Notes: generated from the letters alone by a model not told the origin. A DNA stretch of 56,806 nt from a virus (IMGVR_UViG_3300010373_000054:1-56806), one strand, 5' to 3'; numbered from the stretch's first letter, positions 21,927-39,443 are shown. Program-made: numbers and translations.

Positions 21927-22453
21927 TATGATAAATCCCAAGATTTGTTTAGTGTTGATTTATAACAGGTTCCAAATGATTTTGCCCTTCCTACACCAGT
22001 AGGATTAGGCGCATCTATACATTCAATAATAAGAGAAGCTACAGCGGAAGGAAGTCCAGTAATCAAAGCTCCTACAGCACCAATTCCAAACTTCCAGCTT
22101 CTACGCTGGAAATAAGAAATTTGAGCCGATCCAGCTTTAAGAGTTTGAACGCCACCTTCAGCACTTCCACCATTGATAATATCGGTTTCACCGTTTGCAA
22201 GACGTGCTGCAATTTCCATGCAAGCTTGAACAATATTTGGATTAAGAAGTCTTAGTTCTTGAGTAGAACCGCATTCTTCTTTCCAAGGTAGAGAATCCAA
22301 GAACCTTGTAGCCTGAATAAGATAACCGGCCTTTTGGTCGCTTGTTAGAATGTTCCAAACGGCCCCATATTCAGTAGGGCCGATATAAGTGTCAGCTTCT
22401 TCAATTGAAGCGTATGAGAAATATTCATTTCCGTTAAAAGTGATCATAGCCAT
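21926..22453 (-). CDS. head-tail connector (DnaT_2-like)
   Basis: 'SYASIEEADTY', 'LIQATRFLD' motifs. Confidence 0.7.
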   Translation of the reverse strand: MAMITFNGNEYFSYASIEEADTYIGPTEYGAVWNILTSDQKAGYLIQATRFLDSLPWKEECGSTQELRLLNPNIVQACMEIAARLANGETDIINGGSAEGGVQTLKAGSAQISYFQRRSWKFGIGAVGALITGLPSAVASLIIECIDAPNPTGVGRAKSFGTCYKSTLNKSWDLS

Positions 22454-23799
22454 TAAAACAAATCCTCCTCTTTAATGCTTTCATCCAAAGGAGTCAAATC
22501 CAAAGCTCTGAAAACTTCCTTGACAGATTCATCACGCCTATCCAAAGTGATACCAGCACTTGCAAGATCACGAAGCGAAGAAACTATTTCTTCAATGGAA
22601 CGTTGAGAAACTTCAGAAGGTGTAAGAATAGGCATAGAGTCCAAATCCCAACCGTTAAGCTTTGCTAGGAATGGAAGAAGATCTTTGTTAAACTGATCAG
22701 CAATTTCCTTAAGCAATGAATTGATTGCAATTAGAAGGTTGCTAGATTTGTCTTTCGAAAGAGCGAGAGAGCCAGAACCACCATCGCCAAGAAGAAGAAC
22801 TTCACTGCCAAGAGAGCGAGCAATTTCCATATTCAAACGACGAATGATCGTATCGACATCAGAAAGGCCGGTTGTTCCAGAGCTTAGAAGTTCAAGATCA
22901 TATTGTTTATTGCCTGTTACAGATTGAGATTCGCCTGTTTGCGTACTAGAACCAGAAACGTAATTTGCAGAGTCAAGAACAAGGCCAGTTGTTTCACCAA
23001 CCTGAACCATTCTAACAAATTCTTCTACAGCAGAAGCGGCTTCTTCAATTTGCTCTTTACTCATACCAGATTCAGAAAGAGCCGCATAGGGAACGCGACC
23101 GACAGGAATTCCACGCATATCGCGGTTAATACCCATCTTTTCAGATTTTTGAATTTCTTGCAAACGGCTTGCTGTTTCAGCAACGGCGCGAAGCATCCCA
23201 AAACCTTCAGGAGAATCAGTCAGAAGGTTTTCAACCAAGTAAATTGATTTCCAGCGAGGAATATATGCAGTCGCATTTGTCAACGGTAAAGTTTGACCAA
23301 CAGCAATAATATTGCCATTGTCATCAACATCCCATTTTTGAACCGTTCTACATGGACGCTGTTCAATTGACTTTAGGCCAATAGTTCCATCATCGCGCTT
23401 CTTAGCCGTCATTTCAAGCCAAGAGAATCCGTTGAACTTATAAAGAGAAGCAGCTTTAACCGCATCAACAAAAGGCTGTTCCATATCGTTAAGGATATCC
23501 ATAACGGTTTCAGCCATTTGTTTAGATTCTGAACTGTCGTCTTTTGGTTGTGCAGACCAAGCAGAAGAAGCAACAAGTGTTGTGTATAACCTAACGCTTG
23601 CGAAGATGATTGTCACGTTGGAAATCATATCTTCGTAGGTTCTGAATTTGTTTTCACCAATAAGGCGGCGGTTGCGTTCTTTCGTTACAACGGTACCGCC
23701 TTGAATAGCAGTTGAAGACTTACCAGCTTCCTTATAGGCGGAAGTAGTTCGCTTGGAAGCGCCGCCTAGCCACTTTCCAAAATAATCTTTAATTGCCAT
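22453..23799 (-). CDS. portal protein (DUF935-like)
   Basis: 'GFSWLE', 'SPEGFGMLR', 'GSLALS'; follows terminase. Confidence 0.85.
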   Translation of the reverse strand: MAIKDYFGKWLGGASKRTTSAYKEAGKSSTAIQGGTVVTKERNRRLIGENKFRTYEDMISNVTIIFASVRLYTTLVASSAWSAQPKDDSSESKQMAETVMDILNDMEQPFVDAVKAASLYKFNGFSWLEMTAKKRDDGTIGLKSIEQRPCRTVQKWDVDDNGNIIAVGQTLPLTNATAYIPRWKSIYLVENLLTDSPEGFGMLRAVAETASRLQEIQKSEKMGINRDMRGIPVGRVPYAALSESGMSKEQIEEAASAVEEFVRMVQVGETTGLVLDSANYVSGSSTQTGESQSVTGNKQYDLELLSSGTTGLSDVDTIIRRLNMEIARSLGSEVLLLGDGGSGSLALSKDKSSNLLIAINSLLKEIADQFNKDLLPFLAKLNGWDLDSMPILTPSEVSQRSIEEIVSSLRDLASAGITLDRRDESVKEVFRALDLTPLDESIKEEDLF

Positions 23800-23834
23800 T
23801 AATACACCCTTTTAAAATTGTTAGTACCTCATCT

Positions 23835-23924
23835 AGCCGCACGAAAGGAAGAAAAACACGACCGCGCTGAAGGAAGGAGACAGGAGAAAGCGCATTTAAT
23901 TAATCGCGGACAAGGTGACGCGAT
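23835..23924 (-). ncRNA. candidate three-hairpin sRNA with anti-SD loops
   Basis: three adjacent stems with pyrimidine-rich loops, 3 nt downstream of tRNA-Gln CCA. Confidence 0.5.
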
Positions 23925-23927
23925 ATC

Positions 23928-24001
23928 TGGTTTCCAGTCATGGATTCGAACCATAGTTAGCGCATTCAAAGTGCGCTGTCCTACCGCTAGACGAACTGGA
24001 A
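23928..24001 (-). tRNA. tRNA-Gln(UUG)
   Basis: TTCCAGT/ACTGGAA acceptor, GCGCA-CTTTGAA-TGCGC anticodon arm, GGTTCGAATCC, encoded CCA. Confidence 0.95.
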
Positions 24002-24007
24002 TGAATT

Positions 24008-24085
24008 TGGTCAAGGTGGCTGGATTTGAACCAACGATACCGGCTCCCAAGGCCGGGGCTTTAGACCAGACTAAGCTACACCGAG
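24008..24085 (-). tRNA. tRNA-Pro(UGG)
   Basis: CCGGC-CTTGGGA-GCCGG anticodon arm, GGTTCAAATCC, encoded CCA; two acceptor-stem mismatches. Confidence 0.9.
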
Positions 24086-24098
24086 ATTTTGTTTATCA

Positions 24099-24127
24099 TT
24101 TATACACTAAACACTTTTAAAAGTCAA
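24099..24127 (-). promoter_or_regulatory. tRNA operon promoter
   Basis: TTGACT-N17-TATAAA just upstream of tRNA-Pro. Confidence 0.7.
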
Positions 24128-24144: not shown

Positions 24145-24392
24145 AAAATCCATCAAAAATGTCCAAAATCCATCAATTTATCAGGCCAAAAGGTTTTAAG
24201 TCTTAGAGGGCCGTTTTTCTATATTATAATTTTTATTATATTTTATATATAAAAAGGTAGAAGAAAGTGATAAATTGATTAGCGTACCGTGTAGTACCAT
24301 TTAAAATCAATGTGTTATATTCAAACGCTTAGTCATCACTTTAAACAAAACTGATGGATTTCTGCTATTTTTGATGGAAAACTGATGGATTA
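24145..24392. repeat. origin-like element A (inverted TCCATCA iterons around AT-rich core)
   Basis: AAAATCCATCAA x2 on left, TGATGGA x3 on right, very AT-rich centre. Confidence 0.6.
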
Positions 24393-25868
24393 TCGAACGA
24401 TCCTACCACCAAACGTACTAATTTTAGGCTTTGGTTTGCGAACCATCTGCAAAACTTCAGAGAAAGCTCGGCTTGCGGCGTCAACCATGTCATCATGTTT
24501 GGCATTTGGAAAGTTACAAATCTGATCAAGAAATTCTGCATTCCAATCACCTTTGACCAAATAAACGCCACCTGCTTCAGCTTGAGCCGCTAATGGTGTA
24601 GCTCTCATAGCCTTATCGCCAGTTTCAGGAGAAAACCTTACATCATATCCAATCAAGTCTTGCCTGTATTGTTCAACCTGTGTAAACGATGCTTGCCCCG
24701 GATCACGAGGAATGGAGATTCGAACATGAGTTCCATCTGATTCAGCATTTTGTTTCACAAGCGCACGAACAGCATTTGGGGAAAGTCGTTCGTTGTTTAC
24801 ATGAGCGATAATAACGCGATTATCAGTTGTCAGACCAATTTTAACACTTGCTGTAGGATCGTTTGTTTTCTTTGTGCCAGCCGCCAAATCGTAACCACGC
24901 GCCCAAACAACATCGTTTGGCATAGCGCCAATAAATTTATCTTCAAACCATTCACGTTTGAACATACCACCATCACGAGGAATAGGGCGCTGTTGAAGCT
25001 GTCCAGCAGTACCAAATTCACGAAGAGATTTTTCAAGTGTGTTCACGCGCTCTTCACTAAAGAATTCAGGGAACAACAATTCACCATCATTCTTTCTAGG
25101 GTCTACAAATCCAATATCAGTGTAACATCTACGTTCAGCCTCAAAACGCATAGGAAGCATAAGGTGCGTATATTCTAGTTCTTCCTCAAGAATGATCCCT
25201 GTAACATCCCGCTCGTGCAAGCGCTGCATAATTACAATTATTGCAGAGTCTTCATCGTTAACACGAGTTGGAAGAGTTTCCATGAACGCACGTTCAGCGC
25301 TCAAAAGCTCGGCTGGAGAGTTTGCATCATGTGCGCCAATAGGATCGTCAAGTATAACTCTATCGCCACGCTTACCAGTCATCTTAGTGAATGCAGCAGC
25401 TTCACGAAAACCCTCATGCTTGTTTGCAAAGTTAGACTTAGCGTTTTGATCGTCCTTAAGATTGAGAGGCCATCTCTCTTGATACCAATCTGATTCAATC
25501 AGTGTTCTTGTTTTTGTGGCGTCACGAATTGCAAGGTCTTTAACATGCGAAGTTCCAATATATCGCATATGAGGTTTATTTGCCGGTCCCCATTCCCAAG
25601 CAGGCCAGAAAACAGACGTGAGCAAAGACTTCATGAAACCGGGAGGAACGTTGATGCAAAGCCGTTTAATACGTCCATCAGTTACGGCTTCAAGGTGTTC
25701 GCAAATAGCGTCCATCGCCCATCCCCAACGCAATTGCGTTGATGGTTCCAAAATGTGCCATGAGCGTTTAACGAATTCTGCCAAAGATTCACGACATTCG
25801 GCGCGATCAAGCGCAATCTGAAGCTCCTTAAAACTTGGCAAATTAATTTGCGAAAGATCGATTGACAT
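24390..25868 (-). CDS. terL: terminase large subunit
   Basis: 'INVPPGFMKS' Walker A variant, 'VILDDP', 'IMQRLH', 'YDLA', 'HDDMVDA' nuclease. Confidence 0.95.
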   Translation of the reverse strand: MSIDLSQINLPSFKELQIALDRAECRESLAEFVKRSWHILEPSTQLRWGWAMDAICEHLEAVTDGRIKRLCINVPPGFMKSLLTSVFWPAWEWGPANKPHMRYIGTSHVKDLAIRDATKTRTLIESDWYQERWPLNLKDDQNAKSNFANKHEGFREAAAFTKMTGKRGDRVILDDPIGAHDANSPAELLSAERAFMETLPTRVNDEDSAIIVIMQRLHERDVTGIILEEELEYTHLMLPMRFEAERRCYTDIGFVDPRKNDGELLFPEFFSEERVNTLEKSLREFGTAGQLQQRPIPRDGGMFKREWFEDKFIGAMPNDVVWARGYDLAAGTKKTNDPTASVKIGLTTDNRVIIAHVNNERLSPNAVRALVKQNAESDGTHVRISIPRDPGQASFTQVEQYRQDLIGYDVRFSPETGDKAMRATPLAAQAEAGGVYLVKGDWNAEFLDQICNFPNAKHDDMVDAASRAFSEVLQMVRKPKPKISTFGGRIVR

Positions 25869-25924
25869 TGTTTTCCTTTTTGTGTATGCGTAGATGGTTA
25901 TTAACTTTTAACAGGAGAAATAGA

Positions 25925-26212
25925 ATGCAGAAAATTTTCCGATATTATGAAGACTTTGGTCGTATGGGTGATTTGGAAGGAATCTTTGTAGCGACAGAAG
26001 AAGAAATTTCTAACGCTCCAGAAACCGTTTACTTCGGTGAAGTTCTTGGTAAACACTCAGATGTTTATTCCGATGAATGGAAGAAACACATTACCGTTCT
26101 AACAGATGATCAGGAATTCATTGCAAGGGCTTTGTTCTATGGTCTTTGCGGCACTGGTTATAATCCGCTTGAATATTTCGATGATCTTGATGAAGGTAGT
26201 TTTTATGACTAA
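25925..26212 (+). CDS. hypothetical protein
   Basis: AGGAG SD; 'YFGEVLGKHSDV' motif typical of phage hypotheticals. Confidence 0.7.
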   Translation: MQKIFRYYEDFGRMGDLEGIFVATEEEISNAPETVYFGEVLGKHSDVYSDEWKKHITVLTDDQEFIARALFYGLCGTGYNPLEYFDDLDEGSFYD

Positions 26213-35918: not shown

Positions 35919-36086
35919 ATGAAGACGTATCGGATTGATGGTGTTTACCAACACGGATATGAAGAATGGTTGACTATTGGATGTCCTGAAGATGAGGTCG
36001 GCAGACATATTGAAGATTATCTTGAAGAGAGAACCCCTAACGGGGAAAAGCGATTCAAAAGTATTATCGTTACAATTGAAGACTAA
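35919..36086 (+). CDS. cassette gene, paralogue of 36768-36941
   Basis: own promoter (35863) and AAGGAG SD; TYRIDGVY...CPEDEV. Confidence 0.75.
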   Translation: MKTYRIDGVYQHGYEEWLTIGCPEDEVGRHIEDYLEERTPNGEKRFKSIIVTIED

Positions 36087-36279
36087 GGCGCTCTAAGCGC
36101 CTTTTCTTTTGTCCTTTAGGATCGCGTAACATGCATTATGGAACTGTTTCGGATGCGGAATGATCACTAAAAACAGGCATTTTTATGATCCAAAAAATAT
36201 TTGTCATGGTTCATTTTTCCTATTGTAAACTGTGAAGAATCGTGAGATAAAGAATGCAACGAAGCAAGGAGATACGGAA

Positions 36280-36510
36280 ATGAACGTTACGGTAGTTTCA
36301 AAGGAAGAAGGCAGAATTCAAGTTGAAATCGAAATGAAGAATACGATGCTGGAAGATGAGAAATATTGCGTAGTATTTGTAGAATTCAATGGCCGTATGA
36401 TTGAAACTGTTTACGTTCAACGCAAAAATGGAAAGTATGCAGAACTAAACCCACAAAAACATCGTTATCAGTTTAACAGGGTTGCTGAAATTGCAAGAAA
36501 GGCGCTCTAA
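36280..36510 (+). CDS. cassette gene, hypothetical
   Basis: own promoter (36223); stop codon inside repeat hairpin. Confidence 0.75.
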   Translation: MNVTVVSKEEGRIQVEIEMKNTMLEDEKYCVVFVEFNGRMIETVYVQRKNGKYAELNPQKHRYQFNRVAEIARKAL

Positions 36511-36600
36511 GCGCCTTTTTCTTTGTCTAAATGTAATTTAGTTGTTGACTTATGGTTCATGGTATGGGAATGTAAGTCATCGAAACAAGGAGATAAGCAG

Positions 36601-36771
36601 ATGCCTAAATACATGATTCAGGTTCTTGGAACATATCTTGAATGCGTTGGTGAAACTGTAGAAGAGCTTCGCATTAATGGTATGAAGCTTAAGAACAAAC
36701 ATAACCTATCTGGCATGACTTATCGCATATTCAAAGATTATAAGTTTGTGAAAGATTGTGTGTTCTCATGA
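36601..36771 (+). CDS. cassette gene, hypothetical
   Basis: own promoter (36545), AAGGAG SD. Confidence 0.7.
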   Translation: MPKYMIQVLGTYLECVGETVEELRINGMKLKNKHNLSGMTYRIFKDYKFVKDCVFS

Positions 36772-36941
36772 GTTCAACATACGGAATAGATGGCGTCTAT
36801 TCATGTGGAATGAAAAGATGGCTTATGCTTAATTGTCCTGCTGATGAAGTAGTAGAATGTGTTCAAATGTATTTAAACGAAAAAATTGACGGTAAGCCGA
36901 AATTCAAAGAAATTAGGATTTATATTGAAAGGCGTTATTAA
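36768..36941 (+). CDS. cassette gene, paralogue of 35919-36086
   Basis: TYGIDGVY...CPADEV; stop inside repeat hairpin. Confidence 0.7.
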   Translation: MSSTYGIDGVYSCGMKRWLMLNCPADEVVECVQMYLNEKIDGKPKFKEIRIYIERRY

Positions 36942-37033
36942 CGCCTTTTTCTTTGCCTAAATGTAATTTCCTGTTGCAATGGTCTATGGATTGTGCGATA
37001 AAGAATTCAGAGAAAAACAAAGGAAACATACGA

Positions 37034-37267
37034 ATGGCTAAAGCTTACTTCCTTCCACTGGTTTCACTCCCTGTAATTATTGATGAGCCGGGTGAATACG
37101 TAACACGTTGTGGTGATGTTGTTACAGTAACCATCGTTAGCACAAGACATGATTTGAATTGCCATGGCTTCTATAATGATGGTCATGTCAACGAAAGCTG
37201 GCACAAGTCAGGTCGTCTATATGCAACAACTGAAAGCTTCAATGATATTGTTTCTAAGGCGCTCTAA
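37034..37267 (+). CDS. cassette gene, hypothetical
   Basis: own promoter (36974); 'GEYVTRCGDVV'; stop inside repeat hairpin. Confidence 0.75.
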   Translation: MAKAYFLPLVSLPVIIDEPGEYVTRCGDVVTVTIVSTRHDLNCHGFYNDGHVNESWHKSGRLYATTESFNDIVSKAL

Positions 37268-37357
37268 GCGCCTTTTTCTTTGCCTAAATGCATTTTTCCT
37301 GTTGCAATGCATTTTAATCTATGCGATAAATGATTATCGAACCAAGGAGAGATAACA

Positions 37358-37558
37358 ATGTCAGACAAGGTTTTTGGTTATGATCTTCAAGATATCCTTG
37401 ATGGTCAACAGCGAAAAGGAAAGCTAGTCTCTAACCCAATTGATTTATCCAAGACTGGAGATTATGGGGCTGATCCTATTGGCGATGGTACTTTTCGTAT
37501 GATCCCTAGTGGTGACATTGTTGACTTTGAAGAAAGAAATAAAAGGCTTAAAAGATAA
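37358..37558 (+). CDS. cassette gene, hypothetical
   Basis: own promoter (37302), AAGGAG SD. Confidence 0.7.
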   Translation: MSDKVFGYDLQDILDGQQRKGKLVSNPIDLSKTGDYGADPIGDGTFRMIPSGDIVDFEERNKRLKR

Positions 37559-38141
37559 TGTTGATAGCACATGGCATAGTGATCGTATTTCTGGTAGCAA
37601 TATTCATGGTTTATGTGTGGATAGTAAAGGAGAACTTGAGATGATATCTTACTGGCTAGGAATAAATGCCTATCGTCAAGGGAATTTTAAGAATCCTTTC
37701 ACATATGCAAGCCAAGATTGGCGGGATTGGAATGAAGGATGGTATGCAGCTCTTTATCAGGAGAAAGGCTATAAGCCTAAGTATATTGGTGAGAGAAGAT
37801 GACTATTTTTGATTTTCTTATAATACTTGCCGCCTTTGCTTTGTTCTTTTTTATTGAATGGTTATGTAGTTAGCATCCTAATCATTCCATTTGAAATGAT
37901 TGACCTTGTATATCATTAGCATGGATAATGGTTCATGTGCGCGAGATTGAGGGCAATGGATGATGGAGAGGGGTTTGTTTGCTTGATATAATTCCTATAA
38001 CTAAAGCTAAGTCTGTCATAGGTTTAGTAACTTATTAGGCTGGATAAAGTGGAATTATTTTCACTTTTCCGGTCTTTTTGTGTTGACGTGGCTTCAGAGA
38101 TATGCGATAACAAAATCACAGAGAAACAAGGAGTTACGGAA

Positions 38142-38354
38142 ATGAATGCAACTTACTTTGTAAAGAACGAAAACACTCTTGGTTATGTTTATCCTGCACA
38201 GCCTGAATTCTTCAACATCATTGCAGGGAAGCCACAGATTGGCGGCGATAATTGGGTGGATGGATTCGTTGCAATTGGAGAGTCAGATAAGTTAAGGGTT
38301 GCAACTAAAGAAGATTTTGATCATTTCAGAGTTTGTAGCAAAAACCACATCTAG
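38142..38354 (+). CDS. hypothetical early protein
   Basis: promoter TTGACG-N17-GATAAC at 38083, AAGGAG SD. Confidence 0.7.
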   Translation: MNATYFVKNENTLGYVYPAQPEFFNIIAGKPQIGGDNWVDGFVAIGESDKLRVATKEDFDHFRVCSKNHI

Positions 38355-39204: not shown

Positions 39205-39443
39205 ATTCATCAGTTTTTGCCAAAATCCATCAATTTTACAAGTGATTTGGTTAGTTTCTTAAAAGAGCGTGAAAAGTATATTGTGAAATTTGTATATAAT
39301 TTTATTTTTATTATTTATTTTTGATAAATTGATTAAAATAAAGAAAGAAAGAAAGAAATATCTCTCTAAACCTTTATTTTTATTGAGCTTTTAAAATCCA
39401 TCAATTTTGGCTTTTCAACACATTTTTGATGGAAATTTTGATG
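39205..39443. repeat. origin-like element B, homologous to element A
   Basis: CCAAAATCCATCAATTT, TGATAAATTGATTA, ATTTTTGATGGAAA in same order and similar spacing as 24163-24380. Confidence 0.6.

Follow-up and report, generated by a model that had tools for sequence, protein, structure and literature searches.

What do three close-packed hairpins directly behind a pair of phage tRNA genes represent, and what could an RNA of this kind do? The question is raised by an IMG/VR virus record (IMGVR_UViG_3300010373_000054), referred to here as the window, which spans 56.8 kb (56,806 nucleotides) with ~40% GC and has an estimated completeness of 77%. A sequence-only reading of this DNA had described the hairpins as a phage small RNA that is co-transcribed with the tRNAs and exposes three anti-Shine-Dalgarno (anti-SD) loops. 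Our analysis indicates, with a probability of roughly 0.85, that the three hairpins following the phage tRNAs are a conserved structured RNA. By comparison of its copies, the element is a ~95-nt strand-specific RNA module of three hairpins, H1 to H3, with an A/U-rich linker between H1 and H2. That this RNA pairs with Shine-Dalgarno (SD) regions is a tentative proposal, for which we would give slightly less than even odds.

On the minus strand, the locus runs from the terminase large subunit through an AT-rich spacer of 304 nt, a promoter-like site, tRNA-Pro, tRNA-Gln, and the three-hairpin element to the portal gene (Table 1). The positions and sequences first proposed for the three stems and loops are correct, with the hairpins filling 23924..23835 of the minus strand, and the 3-nt spacing (23927..23925) between the CCA of tRNA-Gln and H1 agrees with both ARAGORN and Rfam. 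The automated promoter scan missed the sigma-70-like promoter before tRNA-Pro because its -10 hexamer ends without a T. No terminator was found by a scan of the window between the element (from 23924) and the portal ATG, and the intrinsic terminator or attenuator signature, a GC-rich hairpin with an immediate U-run, is not seen in the window. A separate observation concerns the 11-mer TGATGGATTTT, which occurs 11 times in the window with at most one mismatch (3.3 expected; 0 of 100 shuffles reach 11). Its copies gather in two places (24145-24393 and 39222-39403): ahead of the tRNA promoter, where the spacer has two in direct and two in inverted orientation, and in the intergenic region at 39.2-39.8 kb, which also shares an AT-rich stretch containing AATCAATTTATCA; the 11-mer looks like a putative regulator binding site.

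Table 1. Features of the window at and around the three-hairpin element.
Feature	Coordinates	Strand	Description and basis
Terminase large subunit gene	24390..25868	-	Terminase_6C match
Putative sigma-70-like promoter before tRNA-Pro	24099..24127	-	TTGACT 24127..24122, 17-nt spacer, TATAAA 24104..24099; read by eye
tRNA-Pro (UGG)	24008..24085	-	ARAGORN; Rfam tRNA 50.8 bits
tRNA-Gln (UUG)	23928..24001	-	encoded CCA 23930..23928; ARAGORN; Rfam 59.6 bits
Whole conserved element	23828..23927	-	covariance model match, R1 and R2
Hairpin 1 (H1)	23903..23924	-	GC-rich 6-bp stem, 10-nt loop
H1-H2 linker	23894..23902	-	A/U-rich, single-stranded, ending in conserved AA(A/G)UGC; alignment of four members
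Hairpin 2 (H2)	23864..23893	-	5-bp stem, CU-rich 20-nt loop
Hairpin 3 (H3)	23835..23863	-	8 bp including 5 G-U, CU-rich 13-nt loop
20-codon ORF (ATG..TAG) inside H2-H3	23833..23895	-	open reading frame; without SD; peptide not conserved
Portal RBS (AAGGG) and ATG	23797..23811	-	33 nt past element; ATG at 23799
Mu-type portal gene (PF06074)	22453..23799	-	domain match

Folding energy alone gives no support for the structure in the window. With -22.7 kcal/mol for 131 nt, the minus-strand fold is weaker than the average shuffle (-25.9; z +0.98), and 166 of 200 shuffled sequences are at least as stable. H1 alone survives in the minimum free energy (MFE) structure of the 131-nt RNA, and the isolated hairpins are weak (H1 -5.9, H2 -4.2, and H3 -3.7 kcal/mol). 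The composition of the element is extreme, its best 60-nt stretch being 77% pyrimidine, which places it in the top 16 of 113,494 sequence windows on both strands. In the RNAfold MFE and centroid structures of 23800-23895 on the minus strand, the 5' arm of H2 and the preceding AU are paired with the SD region of the portal gene, and hairpin 3 is moved to another register that uses the 3' arm of H2. The alternative fold is a possible two-state leader that would be specific to this phage. The support for the three-hairpin structure itself comes from comparison with other phage contigs.

The same architecture of three hairpins is present in three further phage contigs, which came from a scan of JGI metagenomes whose only useful locus was L082, a regular expression search across all loci (L076), and a pattern scan of IMG/VR (L191). 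All four copies lie upstream of a Mu-type portal gene and are sense to it. The L082 portal is 49% identical to that of the window, and this contig has the same H1, the same linker, and an H3 with a related loop. A covariance model, R1, was built from L082 and L191 only, with the window and L076 left out; it recovers L076 with 39.7 bits (E 1.5e-5) and the window at 23927..23828 of the minus strand with 25.3 bits (E 0.015 in 724 kb). R1 never saw the window and nevertheless recovers it, which ties the window to the other three members on independent statistical grounds. When R1 was applied to the window together with 176 portal-related loci (1.12 Mb), no further match was obtained at E <1, and raising the limit to E 10 added L109 alone (14.1 bits, E 1.7). 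The covariance model R2 scores the window element at 77.8 bits.

Covariation in related phages, which the sequence-only reading had named as a check, is found in these contigs. Ten of the 23 pairs are doubly changed across the four members, and standard pairs occupy 93.8% of the cells in the four-sequence model alignment, an alignment of four rows only that was fitted to the model. None of 500 shuffles matches either the pairing fraction or the double-change count, and sliding the partners by 1-3 columns lowers pairing to 30-41% and double changes to 0-2. The double changes affect each hairpin (3 of 6 pairs in H1, 2 of the 4 outer pairs in H2, and 3 of 9 pairs in H3), and RNAalifold applied to the four members gives the same three hairpins.

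The strand of the element can be read from H3. The two G-U pairs at its base (GGUC/GGCU) are invariant in all four members, and the plus-strand fold is without H3, in line with the earlier claim that this stem pairs on the minus strand only. The invariant G-U pairs thus fix the strand and exclude both a double-strand DNA site and a reading of the plus strand. A CsrA sponge on the plus strand was rejected on the same ground, these pairs existing on the minus strand alone. Three antisense ORFs over the element (100, 83, and 141 aa) were dismissed because they run antisense through tRNA genes or a tailspike start and because a purine-rich antisense strand is poor in stop codons.

Conservation is concentrated in the stems, the linker end AA(A/G)UGC, the junction GCGGUC, the trailing GGCUAG, and the core of the H3 loop. 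The last of these reads TCCTTTC in all four members and is preceded by C/T-rich letters, giving the consensus C-U-Y-C-C-U-U-U-C; it matches the CCUCC-type anti-SD tail of 16S rRNA, with the window loop reading CUUCC, not CUCC. A pattern blind to loop sequence, applied to IMG/VR, retrieved only members with a CU loop besides two chance matches. These observations support the notion that the anti-SD-like H3 loop is under selection, as judged from the alignment. The loops of H1 and H2 are unrelated among members, that of H2 being A-rich in L082 and L191 and C-rich in L076. The proposal of three anti-SD loops therefore stands in part: the H3 loop is kept in all four copies, but the H1 and H2 loops are not conserved, so the description holds for the window phage only. 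The family, as reconstructed from these copies, has one anti-SD-like loop, and the window lineage has enlarged its H2 loop into a second CU tract of 20 nt. The window itself carries every part of the motif, namely H1, the linker AA(A/G)UGC, H2, and an H3 with the GGUC/GGCU base and a CU-rich loop.

The family is rare, with four loci in the collections searched and a single copy per virus record. R2 found no more members in the window and 176 portal-related loci, nor in 141 loci from the pattern scans, and the element is absent by the same model from the cultured phages Rhizobium RHph_TM3_3_9, Pseudomonas KPP23, and Ruegeria Tedan. R2 also gave no match in 151 sampled genomes from the class of a Rhodobacteraceae genome, an empty sample that carries no weight. 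A search of GenBank phage DNA returned no relatives of the element, just three weak matches of 25-29 nt, and a scan of genome contigs returned 15 distant prophage-like loci, none with the element. Among the matches listed in the IMG/VR pattern scans, the real members are only L184, which is the L076 contig, and L191. The others were judged to be chance: L162 and L163 sit in coding-looking sequence, L284 falls within a 132-aa ORF, L179 and L188 are antisense of an RBS and start codon, and L250 is without the H3 loop. As sole query against IMG/VR the portal protein gave no match; a portal alignment gave 298 relatives, the best 80 of the 298 being at most 44% identical. Portal homologues that are >50% identical occur almost only in assemblies outside the searched set, and the search for members left out the closest portal relatives (P0001-P0019, 98-46% identity), mostly Logan assemblies.

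The surroundings of the element differ among the members. In L191, the terminase is followed by a promoter-like site (TTGACT-17-TACTAT), the element 20 nt further on, a T6 run that begins 6 nt past H3, a tailspike-like gene of 772 aa, and the portal. L082 has the element, an extra hairpin, a terminator-like hairpin 30 nt downstream of the element, a fibre-like ORF of 140 aa, and the portal. L076 begins with a ribonucleotide reductase fragment, followed by a promoter-like site (identified by eye), an abiF-motif RNA, the element, a long hairpin domain, tRNA-Trp, and the portal. The promoter and U-run of L191, the terminator of L082, and the flanking RNA genes of L076 suggest a self-contained RNA over an obligatory leader, and thereby favor action in trans. 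The abiF-motif RNA of L076 (1644-1680, plus strand) matches RF03085 with 50.5 bits (gathering score 37; E 3.7e-8) just past the promoter-like site and ~180 nt upstream of the element; the RNA possibly represents cargo that the phage carries in connection with an abortive-infection system. Between terminase and portal, this phage group has a hot spot for cargo (L322, L324, L191, and L082), with 16 small CDS in Rhizobium phage RHph_TM3_3_9 and 9 in Ruegeria phage Tedan. Cultured relatives have from 1 to 16 small genes in this interval, where the element is absent; the nearest by portal (≤38% identity) include Rhizobium, Ruegeria, and Roseobacter phages. Taken together, the copies define a small family, not described before, that a clade of phages with Mu-type portals carries in the variable cargo region ahead of the portal gene.

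The association with tRNAs, part of the original proposal, holds for the window lineage, in which the element lies 3 nt past a tRNA CCA, but not as a general design, L082 and L191 being without a tRNA. A tRNA scan of 91 portal-linked loci from IMG/VR and JGI identified a tRNA in 2 of the 91, directly before the portal in L076 alone. Closer relatives of the window were found in four public runs (X2, X3, X12, and X16). None of the runs listed for this sequence is on record as RNA, and X12, which is labelled RNA-Seq, is probably DNA. The X2 contig covers 23651..24087 with three substitutions and one deletion, and within the element it changes only the linker. All seven differences listed for X3 fall within the portal gene, with none in 23800..23897. 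One X16 contig is ~86% identical across 23800..23924 (14 substitutions, three indels). Linker length varies in these near relatives, the X2 and X16 contigs having 23899 A>G and lacking 23898. The tRNA-Gln gene constitutes an 80-nt cassette that is missing from that X16 contig, which joins 23924 to 24005 and thereby places the element 3 nt past the CCA of tRNA-Pro. The set of tRNAs thus varies but the element remains at the 3' end of one, which fits a 5' end that, by analogy with known tRNA 3' maturation, would be produced by tRNA processing in the window lineage. Directly upstream of tRNA-Pro, the X3 and X12 contigs have 117 extra letters between 24087 and 24096, and X2, X3, and X16 diverge completely from the window upstream of 24087.

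The H3 loop, as a copy of the anti-SD, is complementary to purine-rich ribosome-binding sites, and the use of such sites is uneven in the window. The previously noted split between early and late genes is borne out by counting: GGAG precedes 2 of 32 late (structural) genes, compared with 38 of the 86 remaining genes, early and replication (Fisher 5.6e-5), counts that rest on heuristic gene calls. Split further, the 38 consist of 18 among 45 early genes on the plus strand and 20 among 41 in the replication block. GGAG is also missing at the portal genes of L082 and L191. Start regions with a perfect complement of at least 8 nt to the element number 18 of 118, compared to a shuffle mean of 5.6 (P about 0.017). 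As had been pointed out, the 10-mer ACAGGAGAAA is found again at 25911..25920, 5 nt ahead of the ATG at 25925, but this gene cannot be singled out as a specific target, as shuffling the element with its composition preserved yields a 10-nt complement to at least one start region in 28% of cases. Five small ORFs of 55-76 aa on the plus strand (35919-38354; starts 35919, 36280, 36601, 37358, and 38142) share a near-identical RBS context of CAAGGAG, 7-8 nt, and ATG, which suggests a tandem family of early paralogues.

For the transcription, processing, targets, and effect of the element, we infer the following course. The window element would be transcribed from the tRNA promoter, and the 5' end of the RNA would be set by 3' processing of tRNA-Gln. 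The H3 loop could then pair with SD regions and block ribosome binding, with action mainly in trans on GGAG-type sites, a mark of the early and replication genes that late genes almost entirely lack; the CU-rich 20-nt H2 loop of the window phage may add pairing capacity. On its 3' side, the RNA would continue into the portal mRNA and may double as the portal leader. Among the points against the pairing model, a generic mimic of the 16S tail would be unspecific and would compete with ribosomes in bulk, and the presence of a gene start shortly downstream of the element in three of the four members (33 nt in the window, 21 nt in L191, and 71 nt in L082) also fits a leader.

A purely cis-acting leader of the portal or late operon is, in our estimation, unlikely. 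It could operate through an alternative pairing that hides or frees a weak SD, through stabilization of the 5' end after tRNA excision, or through put- or attenuator-like control of read-through. In every copy the portal module lies downstream on the same strand, and the preference of RNAfold, in both MFE and centroid, for pairing the 5' arm of H2 with the portal SD favors a cis role in the window phage. The U-run (L191) and terminator-like signal (L082) past the element would suit control of read-through, and the 3-nt gap after the tRNA CCA, which leaves H1 3 nt from the cut, is preserved in the variant without tRNA-Gln. The L076 element, however, is separated from the portal by ~270 nt and one tRNA, without an adjacent ORF start, and the SD-sequestering alternative fold was not found in L191. 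The downstream SDs are short, unlike among members, and do not covary with the loop, no terminator was detected by the scan between the window element and the portal, and a leader leaves the loop's copy of the 16S tail unexplained. Considerably less plausible is a related reading in which conservation serves a mini-ORF (17-22 codons, conserved ATG or GTG to conserved TAG) that would be translated into a leader peptide, melting H2 and H3 in the process. The frame is open in all four members (63, 69, 66, and 54 nt), whose shuffles are open at 0.93, 0.32, 0.42, and 0.73, giving for the three non-discovery copies a rough joint chance of about 0.01 when an in-frame chance of 1 in 3 per copy is assumed; moreover, indels of 1 nt and 2 nt between L191 and L082 jointly preserve the frame. 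Against translation, no member has an SD-like sequence within 20 nt upstream of the start, a stretch filled by H1, and the last letter of the start codon lies within the H2 stem. The codon phase in which TCCTTTC is read differs (1 for the window and L082, 0 for L191 and L076), and the peptides share little except M-L and the last G. The altered interior codons between L082 and L191 all change the residue, coinciding with compensatory stem changes, and a near relative has two single-base insertions inside the ORF.

Other readings address the loop rather than the operon. That the phage makes a mimic of the 16S rRNA 3' tail that acts globally, either by masking strong SD sites or by baiting a defense factor, seems improbable, if somewhat less so than the mini-ORF. 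Confined to a protein-binding decoy, in which the H3 loop would imitate the 16S 3' tail and titrate a host or defense factor without pairing to mRNA, the idea becomes decidedly improbable. Toxins and assembly factors target the 16S 3' tail, the H3 loop is exposed and of the anti-SD type, and the element travels with plausible counter-defense RNA cargo (tRNAs in the window and the abiF-motif RNA in L076); a decoy would nevertheless leave the conservation of H1, the linker, and H2 unexplained. There is little chance that this stretch is a spacer without function, an ordinary tRNA trailer, or an intrinsic terminator that ends the tRNA unit. The window copy folds no better than shuffles and is located in a highly variable cargo region, but contigs with portals no more than 39-49% identical have homologous copies that show compensatory changes, two of the four members are without a tRNA, and none of the three window hairpins is followed by a U-run. 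Least plausible of all, to the point of being nearly discounted, is membership in the alphaproteobacterial cuckoo/ar14 family (CcsR, NfeR1), with which kinship had originally been suggested. These RNAs reside on alphaproteobacterial replicons in several copies, often beside a DUF1127 ORF. They are hairpin sRNAs that expose the anti-SD in their loops, with CCUCCUCCC in each loop, and are cut from longer transcripts (UTRs) by RNase processing (PMC8034643). The concept of an anti-SD sequence in hairpin loops is shared, and the nearest cultured portal relatives include phages of Rhizobium, Ruegeria, and Roseobacter. The kinship is not supported, and as a claim of membership it is refuted: the element has no Rfam match at E up to 10, and CCUCCUCCC, which has four matches in the whole window when up to one mismatch is allowed, has none in 23800..23930. 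The CU-rich motif of the element differs from CCUCCUCCC and is conserved in one of three loops; the element is phage-borne and single-copy, with three unlike hairpins and a conserved linker. The 151 sampled genomes without a match carry no weight here either.

The comparison with known RNAs extends to several phage and bacterial systems. Infernal cmscan against Rfam at E up to 10, applied to the window region and to L082, L076, and L191, returned only tRNA, the abiF motif elsewhere in L076, and noise. The 4227 families of Rfam 15 include no match to any of the four members. The element constitutes a new RNA family of a known kind, the hairpin-loop anti-SD RNA. The 3' external transcribed spacer (3'ETS) of the glyW-cysT-leuZ tRNA operon in E. 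coli reaches as far as the terminator of the operon and acts as a sponge that pairs with sRNAs once RNase E and tRNA 3' processing have released it. The element likewise lies directly 3' of the last tRNA, both in the window and in the X16 variant, and the biogenesis we propose is the same; it differs in that it does not end at an intrinsic terminator in the window, in that two of four members are without an adjoining tRNA, and in its anti-SD-like motif. The c4 antisense RNA of phages P1 and P7 is processed from a longer transcript, and its loops pair with an RBS region in the same operon, whereas our element has no Rfam match (E up to 10) and is complementary to SD sequences in general, not through one specific pair of sites. 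RegB of phage T4 is an endoribonuclease, a protein, that singles out the GGAG-type SDs of early messages while late messages escape; the logic is the same, except that the element would mask the site by pairing rather than cleave it. The T4 tRNA cluster also yields two stable small RNAs, species 1 and 2, that are co-transcribed and co-processed with the tRNAs and whose function is unknown; our element occurs also without tRNAs. A literature search found no phage anti-SD sRNA of this kind, which is not proof of its absence from print.

To our knowledge, few regulatory RNAs encoded by phages have been described, and almost none from uncultured phages. The element adds a compact motif supported by covariation, with a testable business end, a loop that copies the anti-SD in a genome whose late genes avoid GGAG. 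If the reading as a mimic acting globally is true, its masking version would move ribosomes from host and early messages to SD-poor late messages, and its decoy version would provide bait, beside the tRNA and abiF-motif cargo, for a host factor that recognizes or cuts the anti-SD tail. The morphogenesis operon would still have a conserved leader marked by this motif should the pairing model be wrong. If that model is true, the phage would have an RNA-based switch that moves translation off early genes onto late ones, or off the host, and the element would be a third kind of cargo, beside tRNAs and abiF-like RNA, in an RNA island upstream of the portal.
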